From the NCBI GenBank assembly GCA_964016885.1, contig OZ024743.1, forward strand, positions 496,001-560,000: DNA of 64,000 nt, in the 5' to 3' direction. Numbering within the stretch: the stretch's first letter is position 1; the number at the start of each line of letters is the position of its first letter. Positions 60,825 to 61,462 of this stretch are shown piece by piece. The DNA comes from Eledone cirrhosa. Lineage: Eukaryota. A program made the translations under genes and the position numbers. The notes beneath the pieces were generated by a model. That model was not told the origin of the DNA. It worked only from the letters and a program-made list of their open reading frames with translations, and did no database searches.

Positions 60825-60828
<4 letters not shown>

Positions 60829-61462
60829 ATTCACCGAACATTTATTATAATGCTCAGTTTGTTTGTAAACAAACATCCCGAATTAAGCCGTACAGTGTTT
60901 AGCAACCATCGTTGCCCTTTTGTTCAACACTGACAAAGGAACGACGTACTAGTTTCAAGCTTATTAGCTATCGTCAGCAACGTATACCTTCCTGAAAGAT
61001 GATTGAACGTCTGAAAGTATATATTTTCCTTATGCATATTAACGGCTGAACAGCCTAATTTGCATATGAGTGAGTTAATCGACCGGGTGCACCGAAAACG
61101 ATAAATGGAAAAAATGAAACGAAATTTCATTTCTCACTCTTAGTACGGCTGTTACTTAAATATAAGTATGTATACGTACATACATATATGTATACAGACG
61201 TACAGTAGTATGTATATATATATACATACATGCACACATATATATATGTACGTATGGATTCACCGAACATTTATTATAATGCATTATAGCATTATAATAA
61301 ATGTTCGGTGAATCCATACGTACATATATATATGTGTGCATGTATGTATATATATATACATACTACTGTACGTCTGTATACATATATGTATGTACATATA
61401 CATACTTATATTTAAGTAACAGCCGTACTAAGAGTGAGGAATGAAATTTCGTTTTATTTTTC
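60825..61462. mobile_element. 429-bp HHR-bearing unit (1.07 copies, minus) plus inverted arm; homologous to the 468-bp unit
   Basis: ATGGATTCACCGAACATTTATTATAATGC at 60825 and 61254; foldback centred ~61285; shared motifs CTAATTTGCATA, ACCGG..ACGATAAA, GACAA(A)GGAA. Confidence 0.8.
60941..60983 (-). ncRNA. Type I hammerhead ribozyme
   Basis: ACGTTG-CTGACGA-TAGCTAATAAGCTT-GAAA-CTAG-TA-CGTCGT; same palindromic ACTAGT stem III, GUA cleavage triplet. Confidence 0.75.

Follow-up and report, generated by a model that had tools for sequence, protein, structure and literature searches.

A hammerhead-bearing tandem repeat family of Eledone cirrhosa, likely a non-LTR retrozyme inserted into (TA)n by a PLE, with a predicted fold kept by paired changes between subfamilies

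The 429-bp repeat unit near the end of the window, by which we mean the whole 64,000-nucleotide stretch of Eledone cirrhosa DNA that was analysed, is very probably a decaying copy of a high-copy, hammerhead-bearing family. This family is likely a non-autonomous non-LTR retrozyme, was likely reverse-transcribed by a PLE into (TA)n, and appears to have kept its predicted fold by paired changes between subfamilies. The first-pass annotation had described the unit as a second, diverged homologue of a 468-bp unit elsewhere in the window. All six sequence words that it quoted were found where it had placed them, and the 429-bp period was confirmed, with units starting at 60827 and 61256. It had read the unit on the plus strand; the hammerhead core (60977-60971) lies on the minus strand. 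Homology to the 468-bp unit (unit A) was recovered when the 429-bp unit (unit B) was read on the minus strand (score 133) and was lost when both were read on the plus strand (score 36), as judged by local alignment with the TA hairpin excluded and a null of 200 shuffles (26.5 ± 4.4, maximum 45). The interval also contains an inverted stretch (61110-61462), and the inverted second arm at 61289-61461 was absent from the earlier description. The features of this locus and of its sister insertion are as follows.

60055..60826, no strand: (TA)n target microsatellite, seen in sequence
60827..61282, minus strand: left arm, a complete 429-bp unit of subfamily B1 followed by 27 bp of the next unit
60946..60977, minus strand: type I hammerhead motif, consensus core in sequence
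61099..61112, minus strand: family end site Y, a pyrimidine tract that ends at 61101, putative second start of reverse transcription
61153..61168, minus strand: CTTA hairpin, family end site X, putative first start of reverse transcription
61172..61255, minus strand: TA-rich long hairpin of the unit, differing in length among copies
61289..61461, plus strand: right arm, a 173-bp inverted partial copy with no TA flank
20198..21318, minus strand: left arm of the sister insertion, 2.4 units of 468 bp (subfamily A1), ending at site Y in (TA)n
21319..23112, plus strand: right arm of the sister insertion, 3.8 units, first hammerhead core at 21445, ending at site X in (TA)n

The two loci (60827-61461 and 20198-23112) share an identical head-to-head plan. 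At the 429-bp locus, the 3' end of the left arm meets (TA)n at the TA-rich hairpin of the unit, which is a non-standard end, and the right arm, 98% complementary to left-arm sequence, stops about 10 nt short of site Y. Contigs from two public sequencing runs change to TA repeats at 61101, the position of site Y. If it were transcribed through, 61110-61461 would form a 173-bp near-perfect duplex, an arrangement common to many insertions and a possible source of dsRNA. The window also holds a tandem repeat of about four 105-bp copies at 58840-59273.

We take the motif at this locus to be a hammerhead from its consensus core. On the minus strand it comprises CUGACGA (60977-60971), a stem II (60970-60957) with U.U at its base, and GAAA followed by the palindromic ACUAGU (60956-60948), with a predicted cut after GUA, between 60947 and 60946. 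When Rfam 15 models were run on the window, there was no hammerhead match and only U1 reached its gathering score (14019-14179, plus strand; 86 bits against 69.5). This U1 match carries 5' and Sm-site changes and may be a pseudogene or a variant. On the repeat units, Rfam gave only sub-threshold hairpin matches, and neither unit scored as a hammerhead.

Across the 3.0-Gb genome assembly, a pattern for the shared hammerhead core had 39,829 matches, compared with 3 for a control pattern; the B1-type core had 10,263 and the C-type core 10,672. Of 259 distinct ribozyme-centred windows, 222 could be assigned to one of ten subfamilies, labelled here A1-3, B1-5 and C1-2, with 32 unplaced and 5 ambiguous; B4 is based on 3 copies and A3 on 6, and the sampled loci are biased towards the best matches and the first matches on contig C1. 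The core, stems I-III and a GUH triplet are present in all ten subfamilies, the triplet being GUU in A1, A2 and B2. The base of stem II is U.U in the B and C hammerheads (C.A in B2). Units recur with periods of 422-538 bp in tandem arrays of about 35% GC, show no LTR layout and are dispersed over many contigs. Identity is about 62% between A and B/C, and about 77% between B and C. Unit B has 1,635 candidate places, the best 40 of which are 94-100% identical; the best matches of unit A are closer (99-100%), which suggests that A is younger. Units within some arrays are nearly identical (0.4-0.5% apart), and arrays of the same subfamily can be 7.6% apart (L150, L169); mean within-array divergence is inflated where partial units sit at the inversion. 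One array (C1:5738327-5752443) is extremely asymmetric, one arm having about 31 units and the other just 1. Family sequence is also present in three public sequencing runs of unrecorded kind, and no family matches were found in viral or metagenome contigs.

Relaxed core patterns for more distant subfamilies yielded mostly mutated members, and loci with odd cores (L162-L168 and L114) had unrelated flanks and were excluded from the family. Other hammerhead-motif repeat families lie in the flanks of sampled loci (L003, L018, L025, L168, L223) and are probably terminal repeats of other PLEs.

The majority sequences of all ten subfamilies fold to one predicted layout: the CTTA hairpin, a long-range helix and a GTGAG/CTCAC helix with two hairpins, then two further hairpins, an extended stem I with the ribozyme, and a small hairpin. 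Predicted monomer folds are stable (z -7.9 and -9.8) and stay so without the TA hairpin (z -4.6 to -8.9), with the sense strand more stable than the antisense in 7/7. The helices concerned are these.

60886..61150, minus strand: long-range 8-bp helix closing the ribozyme domain (61150-61143 pairs with 60893-60886)
60922..61008, minus strand: extended stem I, predicted (61008-60978 pairs with 60946-60922)
60893..60932, minus strand: helix of the first-pass annotation (60932-60926 pairs with 60899-60893), an alternative pairing mutually exclusive with extended stem I

Much of the earlier structural description is found in the predicted folds, namely the 8-bp long-range helix with its double changes, the CTTA hairpin, the GTGAG/CTCAC helix, the ACTAGT stem III and the AGG/CCT extension. 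Three pairs of the long-range helix, which spans 250-290 nt, have double changes between subfamilies, as do three pairs each in stems I and II. The reported change of a GAGGAAA hairpin into a GCAAC hairpin holds as to position, but these hairpins pair in only 55-65% of alignment cells, so that the hairpin was replaced, not compensated column by column. The claim that the "whole fold" is conserved went too far: on a sequence-only alignment, pairing holds in 81-85% of cells.

As a neutral control for changes at paired sites, we used copy-private changes in single copies. These fell on paired and unpaired sites at similar rates (0.0114 and 0.0126 changes per site), and 57/212 of them kept pairing. 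When pairs were predicted from B1 alone, 19/30 distinct changes in the other six B/C subfamilies kept pairing (double changes, 7/9), a difference from the private changes with a Fisher p of 2e-4. That subfamily changes keep pairs more often than private changes points to selection on the source RNAs and to drift of genomic copies. From A1 to B1, 14/21 double changes keep the pair and 16/24 single changes break it, on a sequence-only alignment in which these partly reflect register shifts. Eleven real copies yielded 19 and 18 pairs with double changes, compared with 14.1 and 12.5 after shuffling (4/500 and 2/500), a control that ignores relatedness, and with 0-11 in slid controls. Independent pairing events are few because there are only three deep lineages (A, B and C). 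We conclude that selection maintains the predicted pairing outside the catalytic core in the lineages from which copies arise, and that inserted copies drift. The earlier proposal of a structured RNA family under selection well beyond the ribozyme is upheld in that pairing is kept between subfamilies; this selection acts on source lineages and not on the locus itself. The 429-bp copy differs from the B1 majority by 10 substitutions, 6 of them at paired sites, and 4 of these break family pairs; three of the four fall in stem I and its extension (60996, 60995, 60980). The 60827-61461 locus is an ordinary decaying copy.

The insertions of the family are inverted arms in (TA)n with two fixed 3' ends. 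We scored 130 distinct elements, each lying wholly inside the fetched loci, and found two outward-facing arms in 67. Under strict scoring, 122 of 195 outward ends fell at one of two homologous sites: X, within the CTTA hairpin, or Y, which lies 55-70 nt downstream, past the next hairpin. Among the 26 two-arm insertions that strict scoring could resolve (41 of the 67 were unscorable), 24 had one X end and one Y end (p 5e-6), in A, B and C alike. This count replaces a lenient one of 34/37, in which TA similarity had misclassed ends, including the left end of the 60827-61461 locus; a TA flank was seen at 118/135 X/Y ends on the lenient count. The 5' break points avoid no region, and 1/217 lay within 3 nt of the cut site, against 3.4 expected. 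The lack of a peak at the cut site argues that the templates were circles or uncut multimers and not linear monomers. Insertions also nest in each other's TA tails, as at L175 and L225 (A1 beside B1; B1 between two PLE copies), and at L191 (3288-6410, plus strand) a 1040-aa LINE open frame, with endonuclease and RT recognised by eye, lies between two retrozyme insertions.

This anatomy resembles that of PLEs. In the available text of Craig et al. 2021 (PMC8557442), PLE insertions show partial tandems, an inverted 5'-truncated copy, a tail of 30-40 bp at one end and a (TA)n bias, and in that of Frangieh et al. 2024 (PMC11167929) the PLE protein cuts and extends both strands, with starts at two positions inside the RNA that delimit the tail. 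The family has the same partial tandems, inverted 5'-truncated arm, one-end tail, (TA)n bias and two internal starts (here putative) as these Neptune-type elements, and differs in its units without an ORF and in its tail of 55-70 nt. The start site used in vitro by an anole PLE was alike on both strands, according to the part of PMC11167929 that describes it, whereas the arms here use different sites in 24/26. Read from sequence, the insertions bear clear signs of PLE mobilisation.

The likeliest helper, in our view probably the right one, is a PLE that we call PLE1. It encodes an RT, a CxxC-type linker and a GIY-YIG domain (Pfam RVT_1 4e-7, GIY-YIG 2e-6), and fits the Neptune type as outlined in the available text of PMC8557442. 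Many copies retain an intact 784-aa RT and GIY-YIG frame. Like the ribozyme repeat, PLE1 has a two-arm, two-end layout in (TA)n. About 40 nt separate its two 3' ends, and 3/4 two-arm copies with both ends in view carry one of each (L198, L286 and L301; not L305). ORFs for RT and GIY-YIG occur only in neighbouring or fused PLEs; the units have none, being too short at 429-468 bp to hold one. We found no hammerhead motif in PLE1, and its 3' region aligned to the units no better than shuffles. End Y matches the PLE1 end at 11-13 of 16 nt in B3-B5 only (0/1005 null positions), weakly in B1-B2 and not in A and C. A 455-aa upstream frame of PLE1 overlaps the 784-aa RT-EN frame (L308, 6799-8163 and 8097 onward; L220), which may reflect a programmed frameshift or an intron.

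Two fusions connect PLE1 to the family. At L197, one TA-flanked insertion runs from 2.8 A3 units through an inverted A3 piece of 40 nt and a microhomology of 4 nt into a truncated PLE1 that reaches its 3' end. The mirror case, L310, has a PLE1 arm, a 270-nt inverted internal PLE1 piece and then 1.6 C2 units ending at X. Both are head to head with no TA spacer. The one-of-each end rule holds in L197 and fails in L310, which has two short ends; the long end predicted on the L310 PLE arm was not found. It is possible, if somewhat unlikely, that the helper is instead another TA-targeting PLE (the hammerhead-bearing family at L221 or some other) or several, and that the PLE1 fusions are nested insertions followed by deletion. 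The PLE1 fusions observed number just 2, pieces of PLEs are frequent around the repeats (28/245 overlapping loci), and L221 and L225 join B1 to a second PLE family that is different from PLE1. However, each PLE1 fusion is bounded by TA on its two outer sides and carries a short inverted piece where the arms meet, PLE1 offers the many intact copies that the young subfamily A1 requires, and the end of the second family is unlike X or Y (5-8 of 16). At L221 (4776-7300, minus strand), this second family has a minimal hammerhead of its own in its terminal repeat and adjoins B1 head to head without TA.

With PLE1 as the probable helper, we propose the following cycle. A tandem array would be transcribed, and its hammerheads would cut the transcript to monomers, probably acting in dimers that form by way of the palindromic ACUAGU stem III; the extended stem I and the long-range helix may then hold the ends for ligation into a circle. 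This processing is modelled on coral, mussel and axolotl retrozymes as described in part of PMC7229834. The PLE enzyme would nick both strands of a TA repeat, with cDNA starting at X on one strand and at Y on the other; the end pattern is observed, and the enzymology is that suggested by the available text of PMC11167929. Synthesis of cDNA would continue past the cut site, in some cases for many units, and the arms would be joined head to head, an architecture that is observed; the template could be a circle or an uncut multimer. From the contrast between subfamily and private changes, we suggest that only copies that still fold would spawn subfamilies.

An uncut tandem transcript could itself be the template, in which case the hammerhead would be weak or dispensable, no circle would be needed and the conserved fold would bind the PLE protein. 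We consider this unlikely. The failure of 5' break points to cluster at the cut site would agree with it, but a circle explains that equally well. The stem II base is non-standard in B and C, and anole PLE ribozyme mutants still insert, uncut RNA being the main substrate in vitro (PMC11167929, in the text available). Against it, arrays of about 30 units exist, none of the ten subfamilies has lost the core or the palindromic stem III, and covariation is seen in stems I and II.

One helix of the first-pass annotation, CTGG(T/C)TTT changed to CAGTGTT/AACACTG, lies outside the stable fold, with about 0 expected pairs in the whole unit in 5/5 subfamilies shown. As RNA, CAGUGUU/AACACUG competes with extended stem I for one strand, and forcing it costs 5-31 kcal/mol (12/12 sequences). 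It can form 7/8 pairs in 8/10 subfamilies, while A3 keeps 4/8 and B3 is shifted by a deletion. In the isolated, predicted 3' cleavage product, this helix is favoured in B4, B5, C1, C2 and the 429-bp copy, partial in B1 and unfavoured in A and B2. Wherever that strand differs between A and B, its two partners differ to match. This matched change, a post hoc pattern on one deep branch, suggests a two-state RNA. In a fuller version, which we regard as quite unlikely, the family would be a viroid-like RNA parasite of a Neptune PLE that lacks a hammerhead, with an origin outside that PLE's terminal repeat. Its RNA would be a conserved two-state switch, in which one strand (CUGGC in A, CAGUG in B/C) has two mutually exclusive partners, both co-changed. 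By switching, the RNA would pass its cut ends over from the adjacent unit to the ends of its own unit, so that the circle could close, and the circle would present two priming sites, one per subunit of a PLE dimer and one per target strand.

The earlier statement that the repeat is "not a drifting satellite" was right about the structured-RNA family, though genomic copies do drift, at the private-change rates given above. A DNA satellite whose hairpins are kept by palindrome correction at the DNA level, with no selection on RNA, is very improbable. Such a satellite would account for the neutral mutation of copies, the abundance of local palindromes in the unit and a weak G.U strand bias (Watson-Crick to G.U against Watson-Crick to A.C, 6:1 in B/C but 2:3 in A). 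It is already disfavoured by dispersal over many contigs with fixed ends in (TA)n, as well as by the double changes in a helix spanning hundreds of nucleotides and a hammerhead consensus intact on one strand. Most improbable of all is a host-selected structured RNA made from the 60827-61461 locus, as its inverted arms could pair as a 173-bp duplex but 4/6 of its paired-site changes break pairs and it is one among thousands of like insertions.

Compared with known systems, the family is closest to the animal non-LTR retrozymes (Cervera and de la Pena 2020, PMC7229834). In the available text of that paper, these are also non-coding, low-GC tandem repeats in thousands of copies, with a type I hammerhead per unit, a short palindromic stem III and a highly self-paired predicted fold; the U.U at the base of stem II in B and C has an exact counterpart in helix II of axolotl HHR_Amex2, a ribozyme that has to be a dimer to cut well. 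Their units are about 170-400 nt, compared with 422-538 bp here. Inverted arms, two fixed ends, TA targeting and subfamily covariation against a neutral control are found here and go unmentioned in the available text of PMC7229834. Circular RNAs are demonstrated there for animal retrozymes, whereas our family is known from genomic sequence and predicted folds. The architecture of the hammerhead core is described in PMC4209133, and repeat DNA with a type I hammerhead is likewise found in newt satellite 2 and the schistosome satellites, now classed as retrozymes (PMC7229834 and PMC4209133, in their available text) and likened to ours by description, not by sequence. On its testable features, this is a new family of animal non-LTR retrozymes, a class already described (PMC7229834), with putative cleavage, expression and circles. 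Eight of nine predicted frog retrozymes gave no cleavage in vitro (bioRxiv 2026.07.22.740005).

In the part available of Li, Clavereau and Pollet 2026 (bioRxiv 10.64898/2026.07.22.740005), retrozymes are argued to be non-autonomous derivatives of PLEs from co-occurrence and likeness to PLE terminal repeats. Our family is similarly non-autonomous, apparently PLE-dependent and found together with PLEs, and its unit length lies inside their 51-972 bp. The evidence differs: it consists here of insertion anatomy and fusions, the 3' region of PLE1 showed no terminal repeat that could be the parent, and the likeliest helper is without a hammerhead. In the literature outside subscription papers, Repbase/Dfam entries and preprint supplements, we found no published account of the family, of retrozyme end rules or of retrozyme-PLE fusions.

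The movement of animal retrozymes has so far been argued from co-occurrence and sequence likeness. This family offers mechanical traces of it, in two mapped start sites kept across 60% identity and a one-per-strand rule, together with fusions pointing to a candidate enzyme of which intact copies exist, and in ten subfamilies whose predicted helices appear to be kept by selection. The added value lies in the insertion anatomy, which renders the mobilisation model testable: trans-mobilisation and rolling-circle reverse transcription could now be tested directly with the published in vitro PLE assay.
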